DNA of 42,110 nucleotides, taken from positions 1 to 42,110 of the IMG/VR virus record IMGVR_UViG_2541047875_000007, one strand, 5' to 3'. The notes beneath the pieces are model-generated. The model did not search any database. It saw nothing but the letters and a program-made list of their open reading frames with translations, and was not told the origin of the DNA. The first letter of the stretch is position 1, and each line of letters starts with the position of its first letter. A program made the translations under genes and the position numbers. Below are positions 4,464 to 37,335 of the stretch, in pieces. Origin of the DNA: a virus. Lineage: Duplodnaviria > Heunggongvirae > Uroviricota > Caudoviricetes.

Positions 4464-5366
4464 TCAGTAGTTATGTACTGAAGGAGGTAATTCTTTATTC
4501 TTAAGTCTCATCCATGCGGAAAGATTCGTTGGTCCGTCTGGCTCATTGATATCAACATCTCGTGTGTGATTGATTAAAACGTCTCTCGCCATTCCGATAA
4601 CATACGAGAACTCATGACCGTAGTCGTAGCATCTGCCTGAATAGTTCGATTGAATTTGTTTTAGCGCCGGATACAGTTCGCGGAATAATGCCTGTGAGCG
4701 GTTGGCATAATCCCATAACCATACAAGGCTGTTTGCTTCTTTTGCAGAAAGCTCGTTGGTTTTCTTCTCTTGTTTTCCGATGAACTCGCCTTCAAGCACT
4801 ACCCTGTGGATGTACTCTACTGCTTGCGGTATCTGAGATGAATCAAGCTCTTCAATACTTTCCACGTTGAAACGCTGATGAATCATTGCATAAGCTTCTG
4901 GGTACATTAGATGCTTTTTGCTGACTAGCATATTTACAGCATCACGAAGCGGAGTCCTGTCATCAACAGATGTTTTCTTACGTGCATTTTCTGCCTTTCC
5001 CTTCGTCCAGTAGTCATGCAGCACAGTAAAGCATTCTTCCTGGTACTGAATCAGTTTATCGCGAATGTCAGCACGAACTTTCTCAGGGTTGATGCTGAAC
5101 AGCCATCCATTTAACTTCTTCAAAGGAAGGCAGAGTAGCTTACGAAGCTTACCATCAGCGGCAACCATGTTCATATGAACACAGTTGAATTTGCTAATCT
5201 GCTTCATGAGTTTTGTTTGCTGCGTTGACCAGCTCATTCCAAGGTTTTCAACGATTGGCTTCATCGCAACATATGCAACTCCGGCAGTCATGGCGGTGAT
5301 AATCTGCTGACCATTGAAAGGTACGTAAGAGGTGTTCACTGCTTCTAAAATTGCTATACTATTCAT
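4464..5366 (-). CDS. ant: Antirepressor Ant (P22 immI)
   Basis: ORF-track 322-aa ORF begins at a TTG; the first ATG (5366, [10 protein letters not shown]...) gives 300 aa. Lies immediately downstream of arc as in P22 immI. Confidence 0.85.
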
Positions 5367-5434
5367 GTTGGTTTTTCTCCACGAATTTACTGACAACAGA
5401 AGCCCTGACTGTTCCCGCAGTTGGGGCTTCAACT

Positions 5435-5596
5435 TTACGCGCCAATACGCCCTTCCTTCTTAAAGCTGTCCATTACTCTCTGATAAATCTCAGAGTTAAC
5501 AGACCGACCATTCTCTTCCGCCACCTTGCGTACCAAATCCAATACTTCTTTAGGCCACCGCAAATTGAACTGCGGCATTTTGCTCATTCCTTTCAT
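5435..5596 (-). CDS. arc: Arc repressor
   Basis: 53-aa product [53 protein letters not shown], near-identical to P22 Arc from memory; GAGGTGA before the ATG. Confidence 0.9.
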
Positions 5597-5610
5597 GTTC
5601 ACCTCACAAT

Positions 5611-5660
5611 ATAGGTCCACGGTGGACCTATTGAGAATATAGTAGAGTGCTTCTATCATG
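5611..5660. promoter_or_regulatory. immI operator region: Mnt operator palindrome (5611-5631) and Arc operator (5640-5660) between the divergent arc/ant and mnt promoters
   Basis: ATAGGTCCACGGTGGACCTAT perfect palindrome; TAGTAGAGTGCTTCTATCAT with inverted TAGA half-sites; both match remembered P22 Omnt and Oarc. Confidence 0.7.
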
Positions 5661-5686
5661 TCAATACACTAACTTGGAGTGATGGC

Positions 5687-5941
5687 ATGGCTAGAGATGA
5701 TCCGCACTTTAACTTCCGCATGCCTTTGGAAGTAAGAGAAAAATTAAAATACAGAGCAGAGTCAAATGGTAGATCAATGAACTCAGAATTGTTGCAAATC
5801 GTCCAAGATGCTCTATCGAGACCATCTCCTGTAAAAGGTTATCGCAATGAAGCTGAACGATTAGCCGAGATGCAGGCTGAACAGTTCAAGTCTGTGGTAT
5901 TTGAGACACTTAAAAACATGTATGGCAAGGATGCAAAATGA
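5687..5941 (+). CDS. mnt: Mnt repressor (maintenance of lysogeny)
   Basis: 84-aa product MARDDPHFNFRMPLEVREKLKYRAESNGRSMNSELLQIVQDAL, Arc/MetJ-like ribbon-helix-helix N-terminus as in P22 Mnt; GGAG 7 nt upstream. Confidence 0.9.
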   Translation: MARDDPHFNFRMPLEVREKLKYRAESNGRSMNSELLQIVQDALSRPSPVKGYRNEAERLAEMQAEQFKSVVFETLKNMYGKDAK

Positions 5942-24845: not shown

Positions 24846-25204
24846 ACGTTCTCCAGTTCGGTGATTTTTATTCCAAGCCTTCCGCCTGGTACTTTCACAC
24901 CACGAATTACGCGAATGTCATCGAATTGCTCGTCGTCTTCCGCAAATCCGGCGTGGATAAGTGAGTCGAGTAAACCTTTCAGGATGTTGTCGAGGTCGCG
25001 GCGGCGGGAGTCTGGAACGTCTGCGATGACTTTGATACGGAGTCGTGATTTGGTAAAAATGTCTAACTTGAGTTGGCGGATGATTTTCTGAACGTCTTTT
25101 CGGTATTTCTGGCCTTTATCGCTTATGTAATATTGGCTTCCCCGTCTTCGCCAGTAGGTATTCAGCGACGGTGGGTATGGAAGTACAAACTGATATTCGT
25201 TCAT
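24842..25204 (-). CDS. rusA: Holliday-junction resolvase RusA
   Basis: 120 aa; LPYPPSLNTYWR...DRRRRDLDNILKGLLDSLIHAGF...GGRLGIKITE matches the RusA family. Confidence 0.9.
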   Translation of the reverse strand: MNEYQFVLPYPPSLNTYWRRRGSQYYISDKGQKYRKDVQKIIRQLKLDIFTKSRLRIKVIADVPDSRRRDLDNILKGLLDSLIHAGFAEDDEQFDDIRVIRGVKVPGGRLGIKITELENV

Positions 25205-30532: not shown

Positions 30533-30826
30533 TTAAAATTCCATTTGTATTTGATCAGAACGCTCGGTTGCCGCCGGGCGTTTTTTATTGGTGAGAATCG
30601 AAGCAACTTGTCGTGCCAATCGAGCCATGTCGTCGTCAACGACGCCCCATTCAAGAACAGCAAGCAGCATTGAGAACTTTGGAATCCAGTCCCTCTTCCA
30701 CCTGCTGATCTGCGACTTATCAACTCCCACAGCTTCCGCTGTCTTCTCAGTTCCAAGCATTGCGATTTTGTTAAGCAACGCACTCTCGATTCTTAGAGCC
30801 TCGTTGCGTTTGTTTGCACGAACCAT
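30533..30826 (-). CDS. cII: Transcriptional activator CII (lambda-type)
   Basis: 97 aa from ATG 30826: MVRANKRNEALRIESALLNKIAMLGTEKTAEAVGVDKSQISRWKRDWIPKF... matches lambda CII. Confidence 0.95.
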   Translation of the reverse strand: MVRANKRNEALRIESALLNKIAMLGTEKTAEAVGVDKSQISRWKRDWIPKFSMLLAVLEWGVVDDDMARLARQVASILTNKKRPAATERSDQIQMEF

Positions 30827-30905
30827 ATGTAAGTATTTCCTTAGATAACAATTGATTGAATGTATGCAAATAAATGCATACACCATAGGTGTGGTTTAAT
30901 TTGAT

Positions 30906-30937
30906 GCCCTTTTTCAGGGCTGTGATGTGTAAGAGCG
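30906..30937 (-). promoter_or_regulatory. nutR: boxA (30930-30937) and boxB (30906-30920)
   Basis: Minus strand CGCTCTTA ... GCCCTGAAAAAGGGC, identical to remembered lambda nutR boxA/boxB; immediately downstream of cro. Confidence 0.8.
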
Positions 30938-30945
30938 AGAATGTC

Positions 30946-31161
30946 TTAAGCGGCTTTGTGTTCCGGCGGGAACACGTCATCAAGACTGACTTTTGCGCCT
31001 AACTTGTTTAGGCACTCAACAAGAGCACGGCATGTTTTAAGGTCTGGGAAGCGACGACCAGATTCCCAATGTCCGATAGCTCCCTGTGTGCATCCAACTG
31101 CCTTAGCAAGTGTTGTTTGAGAGATATTCAGTGACTCTCGATATTTTCGTAGGTTGCTCAT
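30946..31161 (-). CDS. cro: Cro-like repressor (HTH, XRE family)
   Basis: 71 aa from ATG 31161 (GGAGG upstream); helix-turn-helix ISQTTLAKAVGCTQGAIGHWESG; divergent from cI. Confidence 0.8.
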   Translation of the reverse strand: MSNLRKYRESLNISQTTLAKAVGCTQGAIGHWESGRRFPDLKTCRALVECLNKLGAKVSLDDVFPPEHKAA

Positions 31162-31273
31162 ATGCCCTCCATAGTAACCATGAAACAATAATACGATATG
31201 TACTTTTAGAATGCAAACAAAAAAATACATCTTGTGCATGGATGGTTTTAGTACAGAGCGTAATAATAATGGT
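31162..31273. promoter_or_regulatory. OR region: PR (minus; -35 TTGCAT at 31211-31216, -10 TATTAT at 31188-31193), putative PRM for leaderless cI, and two copies of a 12-bp operator motif (31192-31203, 31251-31262)
   Basis: Motif GTACA-N3-CGTA occurs at the PR -10/spacer (reverse orientation), near the PRM -10, and again at PL (32072-32083). Confidence 0.6.
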
Positions 31274-31933
31274 ATGAAAATGAAATGGTATGAACTGGCT
31301 AGATCCAGAATGAAAGAGCTCGGCATAACTCAAGAGAGGTTAGCTGAAGAGCTTGGTATGACGCAGGGTGGAATTGGTCACTGGTTGCGCGGATCTCGTC
31401 ATCCATCTCTTGACGAGATTGGTGTGGTGTTTAAATACCTTGGTATTGATAACGTCTCATTCAACCACGACGGTACATTTTCACCTGTTGGCGAATACTC
31501 TCTGCCCCCGTTAAAAAAACAATATGAGTACCCTGTTTTTTCTCATGTTCAGGCCGGGATGTTCTCGCCTGAGCTTAGAACCTTTACCAAAGGTGATGCG
31601 GAGAGATGGGTCAGCACAACCAAAAAAGCCAGTGATTGTGCGTTCTGGCTTGAAGTTGAAGGTAATTCCATGACCGCGCCAACAGGATCCAAGCCAAGCT
31701 TTCCTGACGGGATGTTAATTCTCGTTGACCCTGAGCAGGCTGTTGAGCCAGGTGATTTCTGCATAGCCAGACTTGGTGGTGACGAGTTTACCTTCAAGAA
31801 ACTGATCAGGGATAGCGGTCAGGTGTTCCTACAGCCACTAAACCCGCAATATCCAATGATTCCATGCAATGATAGCTGTTCCGTAGTAGGGAAAGTTATC
31901 GCCAGCCAGTGGCCTGAAGAGACATTTAGTTAA
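31274..31933 (+). CDS. cI: CI-type prophage repressor (HTH plus LexA-like S24 peptidase domain); start uncertain (ATG 31274 or 31280)
   Basis: [28 protein letters not shown]; C-terminal S24 features (AG cleavage-site context, GNSM, and a Lys-containing DEFTFKKL segment). The track's upstream ATG 31211 lies inside the PR -35. Confidence 0.85.
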
Positions 31934-31963
31934 CAGCCTCACAACTCTAAAATACACAACAAT

Positions 31964-31993
31964 AACCCGACCTTAGCGTCGGGTTTTCTTTTT
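31964..31993 (+). terminator. Intrinsic terminator downstream of cI
   Basis: AACCCGAC-CTTAGC-GTCGGGTT hairpin followed by TTTCTTTTT. Confidence 0.6.
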
Positions 31994-32058
31994 CCAAAAT
32001 ATAAACCCATTAAATACAAAGCGTTATAAAAAACTAATTATATTTAGAACATTTTGTA

Positions 32059-32094
32059 TTGACTCAATAAAGTACAAATCGTACTATTTAGCCA
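32059..32094 (+). promoter_or_regulatory. PL promoter with overlapping OL operator (32072-32083)
   Basis: TTGACT - 17 bp - TACTAT, then ATCAGCAGGACGCACT matching the remembered lambda PL transcript start; operator GTACAAATCGTA in the spacer. Confidence 0.7.
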
Positions 32095-32125
32095 TCAGCA
32101 GGACGCACTAACCACCATGAAGGTG

Positions 32126-32156
32126 AGGCTCTTAAAAATTAAGCCCTGAAGAAGGG
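32126..32156 (+). promoter_or_regulatory. nutL: boxA (32126-32133, GGCTCTTA) and boxB (32142-32156, GCCCTGAAGAAGGGC)
   Basis: boxB identical to remembered lambda nutL boxB; boxA differs from CGCTCTTA at one position. Confidence 0.85.
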
Positions 32157-32340
32157 CGGCATTCAAAGCAGAAAGCTTTGGGGTGTGGTGAAGCTCAACG
32201 GCGAGCTAGGGAATAGTTTTGCGGTGAAGATTCTAGACAACTAACCGCAGGATGCGCGTAACCCAATCGGCAGCGCACCGATGGAAGCTGGTTCGACTCC
32301 AGCCACCACACCACCAAAGCTAACTGACAGGAGAATCCAG

Positions 32341-32667
32341 ATGGATGCACAAACACGCCGCCGCGAACGTCGCGCAGAGAAACAGGCTCAATGGAAAGCA
32401 GCAAATCCCCTGTTGGTTGGGGTAAACGCAAAACCAGTTAACCGCCCTATTCTCTCGCTGAATCGCAAACCGAAATCACGAGTAGAAAGCGCACTGAATC
32501 CGATAGACCTTACGGTGCTGGCTGAATACCACGAACAGATTGAAAGCAACCTGCAACGTATTGAGCGCAAGAATCAGCGCACATGGTACAGCAAGCCACG
32601 CAGTGAAATGGGTGTGACTTGTGTTGGTCGCCAGAAAATGAAATTAGGCAGCAAACCACTTATTTGA
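32341..32667 (+). CDS. N: Antiterminator N (lambda-type)
   Basis: From ATG 32341: MDAQTRRRERRAEKQAQWKAANPLLVGVNAKPVNRPILSLNRKPKSRVESALNPIDLTVLAEYHEQIES... matches lambda N including the Arg-rich motif. Confidence 0.95.
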   Translation: MDAQTRRRERRAEKQAQWKAANPLLVGVNAKPVNRPILSLNRKPKSRVESALNPIDLTVLAEYHEQIESNLQRIERKNQRTWYSKPRSEMGVTCVGRQKMKLGSKPLI

Positions 32668-36941: not shown

Positions 36942-37335
36942 CTATCAGGCACTGCGTGAAGCGGCAGAGAAAGCCGGTGAAGATAAGTGGCAGGCTAAAA
37001 AAATAAATGGTGATTTTTTCGTTATTCGTCACGGTAGTTATACAAGACAGCATGGCTACACATCGTATCAACCCATTGCGGAGATTGATTGTAAGCCAGT
37101 CCGGGATTTTGTTGCCAAGGCTAATCCGGCTACCGTGCTGGAATTACTGGATGAACTGGAAGCAGCAAAAAAGCGCATTGCAGAACTGGAAGCGCGGGAA
37201 ATATCGCTCCCGGAACGTAGCAGCATGCTTCATCGAACAGATTTTCACGATGATTACCAAACGGTAATGGCATACAAAGTTTCTGAAGTCATCGATGCAA
37301 TCCGCGCTACTGGCATTCGCATCAAAGGAGAGTGA
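36928..37335 (+). CDS. Ead/Ea22-like protein (135 aa); GTG start
   Basis: GTG 36928 preceded by AGGAGG; VSKIDYQALREAAEKAGEDKW... and coiled-coil ELLDELEAAKKRIAELEARE resemble Ead/Ea22-family proteins; overlaps the Lar-like gene by 14 nt. Confidence 0.5.
   Translation: MSKIDYQALREAAEKAGEDKWQAKKINGDFFVIRHGSYTRQHGYTSYQPIAEIDCKPVRDFVAKANPATVLELLDELEAAKKRIAELEAREISLPERSSMLHRTDFHDDYQTVMAYKVSEVIDAIRATGIRIKGE

Follow-up and report, generated by a model that had tools for sequence, protein, structure and literature searches.

The region at 30946-32094 of the window (i.e., the whole 42,110-nucleotide stretch of viral DNA that was analyzed) very probably represents immC of an E. coli prophage of the P22-like kind and encodes a bistable CI/Cro switch built as in lambda, with the immunity type of VT2-Sakai (Sp5). 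The cro and cI genes diverge from a 112-bp intergenic region that houses PR (located by promoter scan) and a predicted PRM, and two tripartite operators with three 17-bp sites each, OR and OL, overlap PR, PRM, and PL (Table 1). This immunity type is already known, since the six sites match annotated operators, CI has the same recognition helix as VT2-Sakai CI, and Cro is one residue off; its operator set and promoters have long been part of the public annotation of the Sakai Stx2 phage. The preliminary description of this DNA, in which the region was taken to define a different immunity specificity, was correct insofar as the specificity differs from that of lambda, but the type is not newly defined and stands annotated as VT2-Sakai/Sp5 in AP000422 and AP005153.

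Table 1. Features of the predicted immC region and its flanks, in window coordinates (promoter starts and operator function as predicted).
Feature	Position	Strand	Details
PRE	30804..30817	+	CII-binding repeat TTGC-N6-TTGC; -10 AAGTAT at 30831-30836
cro	30946..31161	-	71 aa; Pfam HTH_3, E 1.4e-12; strong Shine-Dalgarno GGAGGG upstream
PR	31188..31217	-	-35 TTTGCA at 31217-31212, -10 TATTAT at 31193-31188; consensus scan 9/12
OR1	31189..31205		TAATACGATATGTACTT; over PR -10 and spacer; score 20.3, leave-one-out rank 2; exact motif
OR2	31223..31239		AAATACATCTTGTGCAT; weakest site; score 12.7, leave-one-out rank 27; annotated operator in AP000422 and AP005153
OR3	31249..31265		TAGTACAGAGCGTAATA; over PRM spacer and first base of -10; score 17.2; exact motif
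PRM	31239..31273	+	weak -35 TGGATG at 31239-31244, 17-bp spacer, -10 AATAAT at 31262-31267, then AATGGT
cI	31274..31933	+	219 aa from ATG 31274; second in-frame ATG 31280; HTH_3 and Peptidase_S24
Terminator after cI	31964..31985		bidirectional, intrinsic; from terminator scan
OL3	32012..32028		AAATACAAAGCGTTATA; score 16.4, leave-one-out rank 5; syntenic with annotated VT2-Sakai OL3
OL2	32045..32061		TAGAACATTTTGTATTG; over PL -35; score 17.0, leave-one-out rank 6; syntenic with annotated OL2
OL1	32070..32086		AAGTACAAATCGTACTA; best site, score 22.3, rank 1; exact motif; over PL spacer and -10
PL	32059..32094	+	-35 TTGACT at 32059-32064, -10 TACTAT at 32082-32087; promoter scan 9/12
nutL boxB	32143..32157	+	GCCCTGAAGAAGGGC; identical to lambda boxB-L; upstream of N
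N	32341-32667		Pfam N36, E 2.9e-25

A Sakai-type repressor and Cro

In the GenBank entries for VT2-Sakai (AP000422) and for an Stx1-converting phage (AP005153), each of the six sites has its exact counterpart in one annotated "putative operator", with cores that are either identical or differ by one R/R exchange. Moreover, VT2-Sakai shares with the window the gene order (cro, OR1-3, cI, OL3-1), the PR, PRM, and PL hexamers, and the synteny of all six operators (including its annotated OR1), and the same region is found in AP005153, Stx2 phage II, Nil2, 2851, and the PA-series Stx2a phages. The PR of the window, with a predicted start near 31181, corresponds in position to the PR annotated in AP000422, and the -10 of PRM likewise agrees with the PRM annotated there, while the +1 of PL is placed at A32094 by transfer from lambda PL (ATCAGCAGGACGC), lambda homology starting at 32093. 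The window nevertheless differs from VT2-Sakai in that the OR intergenic DNA is just ~84% identical, OR1 and OR2 are 34 bp rather than 32 bp apart, OR1 reads TACG instead of TACA, and the phage is a P22-like, non-Stx prophage. In the window, a terminator and then OL come directly after cI, OL being 0.8 kb from OR, but in the Stx phages there are 1-2 kb of additional ORFs; N, nut, and cII of the window are of the lambda type instead of the HK022 or 933W type.

CI is chimeric, with a non-lambda HTH domain at approximately residues 1-83 (Pfam HTH_3, E 1.5e-10), followed from residue 84 onwards by an S24 autocleavage domain of the lambda type (Peptidase_S24, E 8.9e-29). The latter cleavage/oligomerisation domain is ~98% identical to that of lambda cI, with VQAGMF (containing the QAG cleavage motif), GNSM, and FKKL aligned and identical, and the CI residues aligning with lambda Q44, E34, and D38 are conserved as well. 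The N-terminal domain agrees with that of VT2-Sakai at 76 of 83 positions; the recognition helix is unchanged, and the only difference within the HTH (residues 17-40) is R22K, outside helix 3. Cro in turn matches VT2-Sakai Cro in 70 of 71 residues (sole difference E49A), and the recognition helices of both proteins of the window are near-identical (TQGGIGHW in CI, TQGAIGHW in Cro). The earlier statement that repressor and Cro are not lambda's thus holds for Cro and for CI residues ~1-83, but not for the C-terminal domain of CI. A PDB search revealed no structure of a Sakai-type repressor, the nearest matches being the lambda CI N-terminal domain (E ~1e-3), P22 c2 (E ~6e-3), and the uncharacterised entry 28tn. 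A protein search with the CI N-terminal domain yielded mostly frameshifted fragments, and only P0011 (MDKW...) was informative.

The general plan is that of lambda, i.e., divergent cI and cro genes, two tripartite operators of 17-bp sites sharing positions A2, A5, and C6, and an OR2 that adjoins a weak PRM -35 (at -43 in the window and -42 in lambda). Compared with lambda, however, neither the N-terminal domain of CI nor Cro shows a related specificity (Cro being an HTH_3 protein rather than a member of the lambda Cro fold family), and the operators read TACR-N3-YGTA instead of TATCACCGC....

The immunity type is present in 773 of 5,426 complete E. coli genomes (~14%), with carriers including O157:H7, Nissle 1917, CFT073, and E2348/69. 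Its operators and promoters are already in use in publications (PMC4587872, PMC9803871, PMC10742460); our literature search for this type turned up neither footprints nor gel shifts made with its own repressor, nor any mapped 5′ end, the sole binding data being for lambda CI at micromolar concentrations (PMC10742460). Papers on the BAA2326 and 933W repressors were set aside as dealing with other immunity types, as was a paper on the Nissle 1917 'pr' gene, whose primers appear to point to another early-region gene. With a switch on the lambda plan and a type annotated for years, the discovery value is small; its practical value lies in the Sakai-type repressor controlling Stx2 phage induction in the Sakai lineage and in the type being common.

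The start of cI

The maintenance mRNA of cI is most probably leaderless, as in lambda, with the +1 of PRM predicted at the A of ATG 31274 (ATG1). As the preliminary description had it, the cI ATG closely follows a TAATAAT element (31261-31267) and lacks a Shine-Dalgarno, the interval being the 6 nt AATGGT. In 11/11 loci from 5 genera, a -10 hexamer (AATAAT, TATTAT, or TATAAT) is located exactly at -12 to -7 from ATG1, separated from it by a stretch that is variable in sequence but always 6 nt long. The lambda PRM consists of TAGATT, 6 nt, and then ATG. Since the geometry of -10, 6 nt, and ATG1 is invariant and matches the lambda PRM, a leaderless cI, which the preliminary description had proposed by analogy with lambda, explains the sequence and the 11 related loci best. 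In all of these loci cro has a strong Shine-Dalgarno (GGAGG), whereas cI has no conserved one. Moreover, no other -10 was found upstream of the cI ATG, and a promoter scan of the plus strand from cro to cI yielded no alternative sigma-70 promoter.

The window's cI opens with two in-frame ATGs, unlike lambda's, and most E. coli relatives, including VT2-Sakai, carry an AAGG 8 nt before the second one (ATG2, 31280). Because of this, the absent Shine-Dalgarno is a private feature of the window's copy; of the 773 genomes that share this cI 5′ end, only the source genome has T31270. These relatives raise the alternative, which we consider unlikely though deserving of attention, that cI is not leaderless, with transcription from PRM or another promoter beginning upstream and translation starting at ATG2 via AAGG/TAAGGA as a ribosome-binding site (as annotated for VT2-Sakai), so that loss of this element in the window would be a private mutation merely weakening expression. 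The singularity of T31270 is in line with this, as is the fact that every one of the closest E. coli relatives examined has TAAGGA or TAAGGG 8 nt ahead of ATG2, and Shine-Dalgarno-led initiation on some transcript would fit AAGG; AP000422, AJ413274, and ON470605 furthermore annotate a 217-aa protein from ATG2, the start used by Makino, Nil2, and 720R6. However, AAGG is situated at -6 to -3 from ATG1, straight after the only good -10 and upstream of the predicted +1 of PRM (where the window has AATGGT), so that the PRM transcript would not include it, and the PRM feature of AP000422 itself ends at that -10. AAGG is also absent in MGYG-110, Moellerella, Providencia, and Proteus, although these retain both ATGs and an interval of 6 nt, and the plus-strand scan between cro and cI offers no other sigma-70 promoter. 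Alternatively, AAGG could serve PRE transcripts, which is compatible with a leaderless maintenance mRNA.

Far less credible is a start at ATG 31238, as chosen by PGAP and Sato, which would yield a 231-aa protein (RefSeq/PGAP, AP005153) from a leadered mRNA, its 12 extra residues forming an N-terminal arm. The frame is indeed open from 31211, and lambda CI uses such an arm; but the codon lies within OR2 and the PRM -35, has no Shine-Dalgarno, and, being upstream of the PRM -10, cannot be on the PRM transcript. In addition, the changes within the 12 codons upstream of ATG1 are all non-synonymous (0 synonymous and 3 non-synonymous vs. 36 and 12 within cI; p = 0.022), and the region upstream of 31274 behaves as if it were non-coding. 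The upstream ATG is limited to an Escherichia-like clade, with no conserved upstream ATG in the compared loci and with in-frame stops two codons before ATG1 in Photobacterium, and the distant homologue P0011 begins with MDKW, aligned with MKW. The RefSeq start of the repressor (231 aa) is therefore probably wrong.

Given a leaderless maintenance mRNA, the tandem start Met-Lys-Met (ATGAAAATG), kept in 11/11 loci from Escherichia to Photobacterium, might constitute a dual-mode start, in which ATG1 is used on the leaderless PRM mRNA in lysogens and ATG2 on the long PRE transcript during establishment; this, and/or an altered cooperative pairing resulting from the longer OR1-OR2 spacing, is a proposal that we hold only tentatively and regard as rather doubtful. 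If the dual start were true, the promoter used would select both the start codon and the translation efficiency, and the AAGG between the PRM -10 and ATG1 would aid ATG2 in the E. coli clade. The comparison across genera in any case yields a clear and cheap prediction, i.e., a leaderless cI starting at ATG1 with OR2 at -43.

Operator sites in the window and in relatives

The exact motif GTACANNNCGTA (GTACA-N3-CGTA) has three matches in the 42-kb window, i.e., 31192-31203 (minus strand), 31251-31262 (plus strand), and 32072-32083 (plus strand), against an expectation of 0.12 from dinucleotide shuffles (0/100 shuffles reached three). Within the window these matches are confined to PR, PRM, and PL, and their earlier placement at the PR -10/spacer (in reverse orientation), the PRM -10 region, and the PL spacer was right. 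The 12-mer forms the asymmetric core of an operator that spans 17 bp, is nearly palindromic, and has the consensus wAr-TACR-N3-YGTA-yTw; what had been described as a 12-bp operator motif does mark operators at PR, PRM, and PL, but the actual unit is the 17-bp near-palindrome with its TACR-N3-YGTA core. The "weaker fourth copy" (ATACAAAGCGTT, 32014-32025) does exist and corresponds to OL3, and two more sites, OR2 and OL2, had been overlooked, bringing the total to six instead of four (OR1, OR2, and OR3 centred at 31197, 31231, and 31257; OL3, OL2, and OL1 at 32020, 32053, and 32078).

When a symmetric 17-bp weight matrix derived from the six sites was used to scan 42,094 positions, the six sites occupied ranks 1-6, and in leave-one-out scans they ranked 1, 2, 5, 6, 6, and 27 (OR2 being the poorest). 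The loose core ACRNNNYGT was not enriched across the window (29 found vs. 34 expected), nor was TACRNNNYGTA with one mismatch. Since the loose core shows no genome-wide enrichment, the signal consists of six sites clustered in two ~70-bp segments. The 17-bp matrix gives low scores to additional matches such as 37057-37067 and 25181-25197, which were taken as chance.

Synteny of the six sites extends to 10 related phages and prophages, in which the spacing is constant at 26 bp (OR2-OR3), 25 bp (OL2-OL1), and 33 bp (OL3-OL2) and amounts to 32-34 bp for OR1-OR2. Among 10 distinct OR sequences, 3/24 core columns are variable vs. 34/89 non-core columns (p = 0.013), and of the three core columns that vary, two show only R/R or Y/Y exchanges, which leave the pattern intact. 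Relatives from Photobacterium, Moellerella, Providencia, and Proteus, of which the N-terminal domain is just 43-51% identical, have the TACR-N3-YGT core at these three positions too, and paired OL sites as well. In phiKp_30, a relative without cI, changes affect exactly core bases of OR2, OR3, and OL2; seeing this phage as a natural 'vir' mutant is only partly convincing, since its OR1 and OL1 cores are intact.

That the repeated 12-mer would arise by chance or from the composition of AT-rich promoter DNA, or be the site of a protein other than the repressor, is hardly conceivable: although the loose core is not enriched window-wide, exact cores occur elsewhere (e.g., 37057-37067), and direct binding data for the cognate protein were not found, this reading is opposed by the excess of exact matches and their location at all three early promoters, by the six sites topping 42,094 positions, by the conservation of positions and core bases across genera while flanking DNA has diverged, by CI and Cro sharing a recognition helix and being the only DNA-binding proteins encoded at the locus, and by the choice of bases altered in the cI-less phiKp_30.

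Proposed working of the switch and its backbone

Based on this layout, CI and Cro dimers would bind the six near-palindromic operators, with OR1 and OL1 as the strongest sites, whose occupancy would repress PR and PL through the overlap with their -10/spacer regions. OR2, centred at -43 from the first cI ATG and adjoining the PRM -35 (at -43 in 11/11 loci from 5 genera), is presumed to be the activating site for PRM, where CI bound to this weak site beside a poor -35 would act via acidic helix-2 residues aligned with lambda Glu34 and Asp38. Cro, or CI at high concentration, would shut PRM off at OR3, whose centre is at -16 or -17 in 11/11 loci. Since the C-terminal domain is near-identical to that of lambda, it can be expected to confer RecA-stimulated self-cleavage at Ala-Gly and dimer-dimer cooperativity. 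OR1 and OR2 are 32-34 bp apart (24 bp in lambda), so that pairwise cooperativity at OR as in lambda is an assumption: this spacing is one helical turn longer than that of lambda, OR2-OR3 has a lambda-like 26 bp, and the longer spacing under a lambda-identical C-terminal domain could alter which pair of sites binds cooperatively. Looping between OL and OR over ~0.8 kb is possible, and cII-dependent PRE transcripts of cI would carry a long leader antisense to cro.

The N/nut/cII backbone, earlier called lambda-identical, is lambda-like, but cII, PRE, nutR, nutL, and N are 84-97% identical to lambda, rexA and rexB are absent from the locus, and the remainder of the prophage resembles P22 and includes an immI of its own. 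The PRE sequence itself is identical to that of lambda and lies inside a 97%-identical lambda block (30537-30937), and the terminator after cI is homologous to the one that follows rexB in lambda (BLAST, 31956-31991 to lambda 35834-35799). The likeness to P22 resides in P22-type virion genes, an immI region with ant, arc, mnt, and sar RNA, and an immC built as a cI/cro-type switch, as is P22 c2/cro. In contrast, the repressor, Cro, and operators are not those of P22 (the c2 match being only E ~6e-3), and the early-region backbone is lambda-like. Finally, a tRNA in the N leader was discarded (none by ARAGORN, no Rfam match); the leader holds a T-arm-like sequence (ggttcgactccagcc).

Predicted operators and identity of the immunity region

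The lambdoid early region is present in the window in reverse orientation, and a consensus promoter scan, run independently of any operator motif, recovered two promoters, PR and PL. The motif GTACANNNCGTA has three exact matches in the 42,110 bases (31192–31203 on the minus strand, 31251–31262 and 32072–32083 on the plus strand), which is far beyond chance since shuffles gave an expectation of 0.12 and none of 100 shuffles reached three. While the preliminary description had placed these copies correctly relative to the promoters, it had seen four operator sites and an asymmetric 12-mer, whereas a 17-bp near-palindrome (half-site wAr-TAC-R) is centred on every copy and six sites exist (i.e., OR1–3 and OL1–3). 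With a symmetric weight matrix, these were the top six among 42,094 window positions, and leave-one-out matrices ranked them 1, 2, 5, 6, 6, and 27, with OR2 being the weakest. The short core ACRNNNYGT was not enriched across the window (29 seen vs. 34 expected), and the significant feature is the clustering of full operator sites at the three promoters rather than the short core.

Features in and around the immunity regions of the window
Feature	Position	Strand	Details
ant (antirepressor)	~4464–5366	-	
sar antisense RNA	5367–5434	+	Rfam RF00262, 91 bits
arc	5435–5596	-	
mnt	5687–5941	+	
cII	30533–30826	-	
cro	30946–31161	-	
PR	−35 TTTGCA 31217–31212; −10 TATTAT 31193–31188	-	consensus promoter scan
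OR1 (predicted)	31189–31205		TAATACGATATGTACTT
OR2 (predicted)	31223–31239		AAATACATCTTGTGCAT
OR3 (predicted)	31249–31265		TAGTACAGAGCGTAATA
cI (repressor gene)	3′ end 31933	+	
OL3 (predicted)	32012–32028		AAATACAAAGCGTTATA
OL2 (predicted)	32045–32061		TAGAACATTTTGTATTG
OL1 (predicted)	32070–32086		AAGTACAAATCGTACTA
PL	−35 TTGACT 32059–32064; −10 TACTAT 32082–32087	+	consensus promoter scan
N	32341–32667	+	
Lambda block: cII, PRE, nutR	30537–30937		lambda 38649–38249, 97%
Lambda block: cI C-terminal domain	31523–31927		lambda 37637–37233, 94% (nt)
Lambda block: terminator downstream of rexB	31956–31991		lambda 35834–35799, 89%
Lambda block: PL +1, nutL, N	32093–32642		lambda 35583–35062, 84%

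All six sites are syntenic, as weight-matrix matches, across ten related phages and prophages, with spacings of 32–34 bp (OR1–OR2), 26 bp (OR2–OR3), 33 bp (OL3–OL2), and 25 bp (OL2–OL1). Among ten distinct OR sequences, 3 of 24 columns of the TACR/YGTA core were variable vs. 34 of 89 other columns (Fisher p = 0.013), and two of these three are purine/purine or pyrimidine/pyrimidine exchanges that preserve the pattern. Moreover, a scan of species-representative genomes yielded relatives in Photobacterium, Moellerella, Providencia, and Proteus with an N-terminal domain only 43–51% identical; these keep the operator core (e.g., TACATAACGTA) at the same three positions, with paired OL sites 23–25 bp apart downstream of cI. 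In Klebsiella phage phiKp_30 (LC768498, positions 900–1200), cI is truncated after ~22 codons, with a deletion equivalent to 31341–32047 of the window; it has no OL3 and carries changes in the core of OR2 (TGTG to TTTG), OR3 (GTA to GCA), and OL2, whereas OR1 and OL1 remain intact. This phage looks like a repressor-less lytic derivative, and its core-position changes provide circumstantial support for operator identity.

E. coli FDAARGOS_1256 has a prophage that matches the window at 100% identity, with P22-like late genes (Lederbergvirus relatives). The cro-OR-cI segment of the window gave 92–99% matches to many phages, and the 111-bp OR region is ~84% identical to those of VT2-Sakai, Stx1-converting phage, Stx2 phage II, Nil2, 2851, the PA-series, and others. 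The records of VT2-Sakai (AP000422) and Stx1-converting phage (AP005153) already annotate PR, PRM, and PL together with three 17-bp "putative operators" each at OR and OL, with which the weight-matrix matches coincide exactly. VT2-Sakai-type operators were used by Yin et al. 2015 (PMC4587872), which cites Fattah et al. 2000, and VT2-Sakai operator oligonucleotides were assayed against lambda CI in two papers (PMC9803871, PMC10742460). Since the CI recognition helix is identical to that of VT2-Sakai CI, 76 of 83 N-terminal residues match, and Cro differs by one residue, the region is a copy of the already described Sakai/Sp5 immunity type and not a new specificity; the preliminary interpretation is right in kind but not about novelty. 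This type is common in E. coli, with the cI 5′ end found at ≥90% identity in 773 of 5,426 complete genomes. The additions made here are modest, i.e., cross-genus evidence for a predicted leaderless, OR2-activated PRM, and a probable mis-annotation of the RefSeq start.

Start of cI and geometry of PRM

Three cI starts have been put forward: ATG 31238 (PGAP, Sato; 231 aa), ATG 31280 (Makino, Nil2, 720R6; 217 aa; referred to as ATG2), and ATG 31274 (referred to as ATG1), the choice of the preliminary description. When 11 loci from five genera were aligned by the first ATG within the conserved ATGAAAATG(A/C)AATGG (MKMKW or MKMQW), a −10-like hexamer (AATAAT, TATTAT, or TATAAT) was located exactly at −12 to −7 in all of them, and the six intervening bases varied freely in sequence (AATGGT, AAGGGT, AAGGAC, GGCGAC, TAGAGA, TAGGGA, TGGGTT, GCTGGT, or CTTGGT) at constant length. 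Moreover, the centres of OR3 and OR2 lie at −16 or −17 and exactly at −43, respectively, a poor −35 (TGGATG, TCAACA, and similar) adjoins OR2, and cro, unlike cI, is preceded by GGAGG at normal spacing in every locus. This geometry matches that of lambda PRM, in which TAGATT is followed by 6 nt and ATG, with OR2 at −42 (from BLAST coordinates and the known lambda sequence). Judging from geometry, the simplest interpretation is that PRM transcription likely begins at A31274, yielding a leaderless mRNA. No mapped 5′ end of the cI transcript of the Sakai/Sp5 type was found in the literature.

The main support for a Shine-Dalgarno-led cI starting from ATG2 is an AAGG element (TAAGGA or TAAGGG, at −6 to −3) situated 8 nt before ATG2 in all of the closest E. 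coli relatives examined. However, with the PRM start predicted downstream of this element, PRM transcripts cannot use it, and such initiation seems unlikely. The AAGG could serve the long transcript from the CII-dependent promoter PRE, the CII site of which (TTGC-N6-TTGC, 30804–30817) is identical to lambda's; a dual-start arrangement, with ATG1 used on the PRM mRNA and ATG2 on the PRE transcript, is a doubtful option. The window itself carries a T at 31270 that destroys AAGG; of the 773 complete E. coli genomes with the cI 5′ end, only the source genome has this base. T31270 also creates a second AATAAT hexamer (31265–31270).

Finally, the 231-aa start is very unlikely, since the frame shows no conservation upstream of ATG1 (Photobacterium has stops two codons before it, and most genera lack an upstream ATG) and since, of the differences from VT2-Sakai in the 12 codons between 31238 and 31274, 0 are synonymous and 3 non-synonymous vs. 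36 and 12 in cI (p = 0.022). ATG 31238, which is used by RefSeq/PGAP (WP_021549875.1) and AP005153, lies inside OR2 and the PRM −35; judging from these comparisons, the RefSeq repressor is probably over-extended and its start mis-annotated.

Mosaic relation to lambda and proposed regulation

BLAST comparison with lambda yielded four homologous blocks, which bound a non-lambda module of 30938–31522 (cro, OR, CI DNA-binding domain) and 31992–32092 (OL, PL). The backbone, previously called lambda-identical, is only similar (84–97% in the shared blocks), and of the repressor, described as not lambda's, this is true of the DNA-binding domain, whereas the C-terminal domain is ~98% lambda at the protein level (QAG, GNSM, and FKKL conserved); by its sequence, the repressor is a chimera. 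In contrast to lambda, rexA and rexB are absent and cI is directly followed by a terminator, so that OL is only ~0.8 kb from OR vs. ~2.2–2.4 kb in VT2-Sakai and lambda. This bidirectional terminator (31964–31985, within 31934–32011) is the homologue of the one downstream of lambda rexB.

Between nutL and N, a long stem (32185–32310) has an interior that has been substituted with respect to lambda, and 720R6 and strain VTB96933v show a different interior again; the stem itself (GCUUUGGGGUGUGGUG...CACCACACCACCAAAGC) corresponds to lambda's RNase III hairpin. For this region, the predicted fold is a closed four-hairpin junction (−64.9 kcal/mol, z = −4.9), the last hairpin of which resembles a tRNA T-arm (GCUGGUUCGACUCCAGC), and neither ARAGORN nor Rfam gave a match. 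At the cII 3′ end, a lambda-type oop terminator (gctcggttgccgccgggcgttttttatt, 30560–30592) points to retention of an OOP-like antisense RNA.

Lambda Gln44, Glu34, and Asp38 align with Gln31, Glu21, and Glu25 of CI. Based on this alignment and on lambda analogy, CI dimers on OR1 and OL1 would occlude PR and PL, CI on OR2 (−43) would activate PRM via an acidic helix-2 patch, CI or Cro on OR3 would shut PRM, and the lambda-type C-terminal domain would confer cooperativity and RecA-dependent cleavage, and probably looping between OL and OR. In a common 17-bp register, A2, A5, and C6 are found in both the operator and the lambda half-site, which fits a homologous docking geometry. OR1 and OR2 are 34 bp apart (32–33 bp in relatives) vs. 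24 bp in lambda, because the PR and predicted PRM starts are ~93 bp apart vs. 83 bp in lambda; lambda-like pairwise cooperativity at this spacing is assumed by analogy.

The same prophage contains a second, P22-type immunity region, immI (4464–5941), and since this includes ant, the antirepressor may also control the Sakai-type CI. The closest solved structure to Cro is PDB 28tn chain A, a "lambda repressor-like protein" (full-length match, E 2.4e-16), which could be a template for this Cro family.
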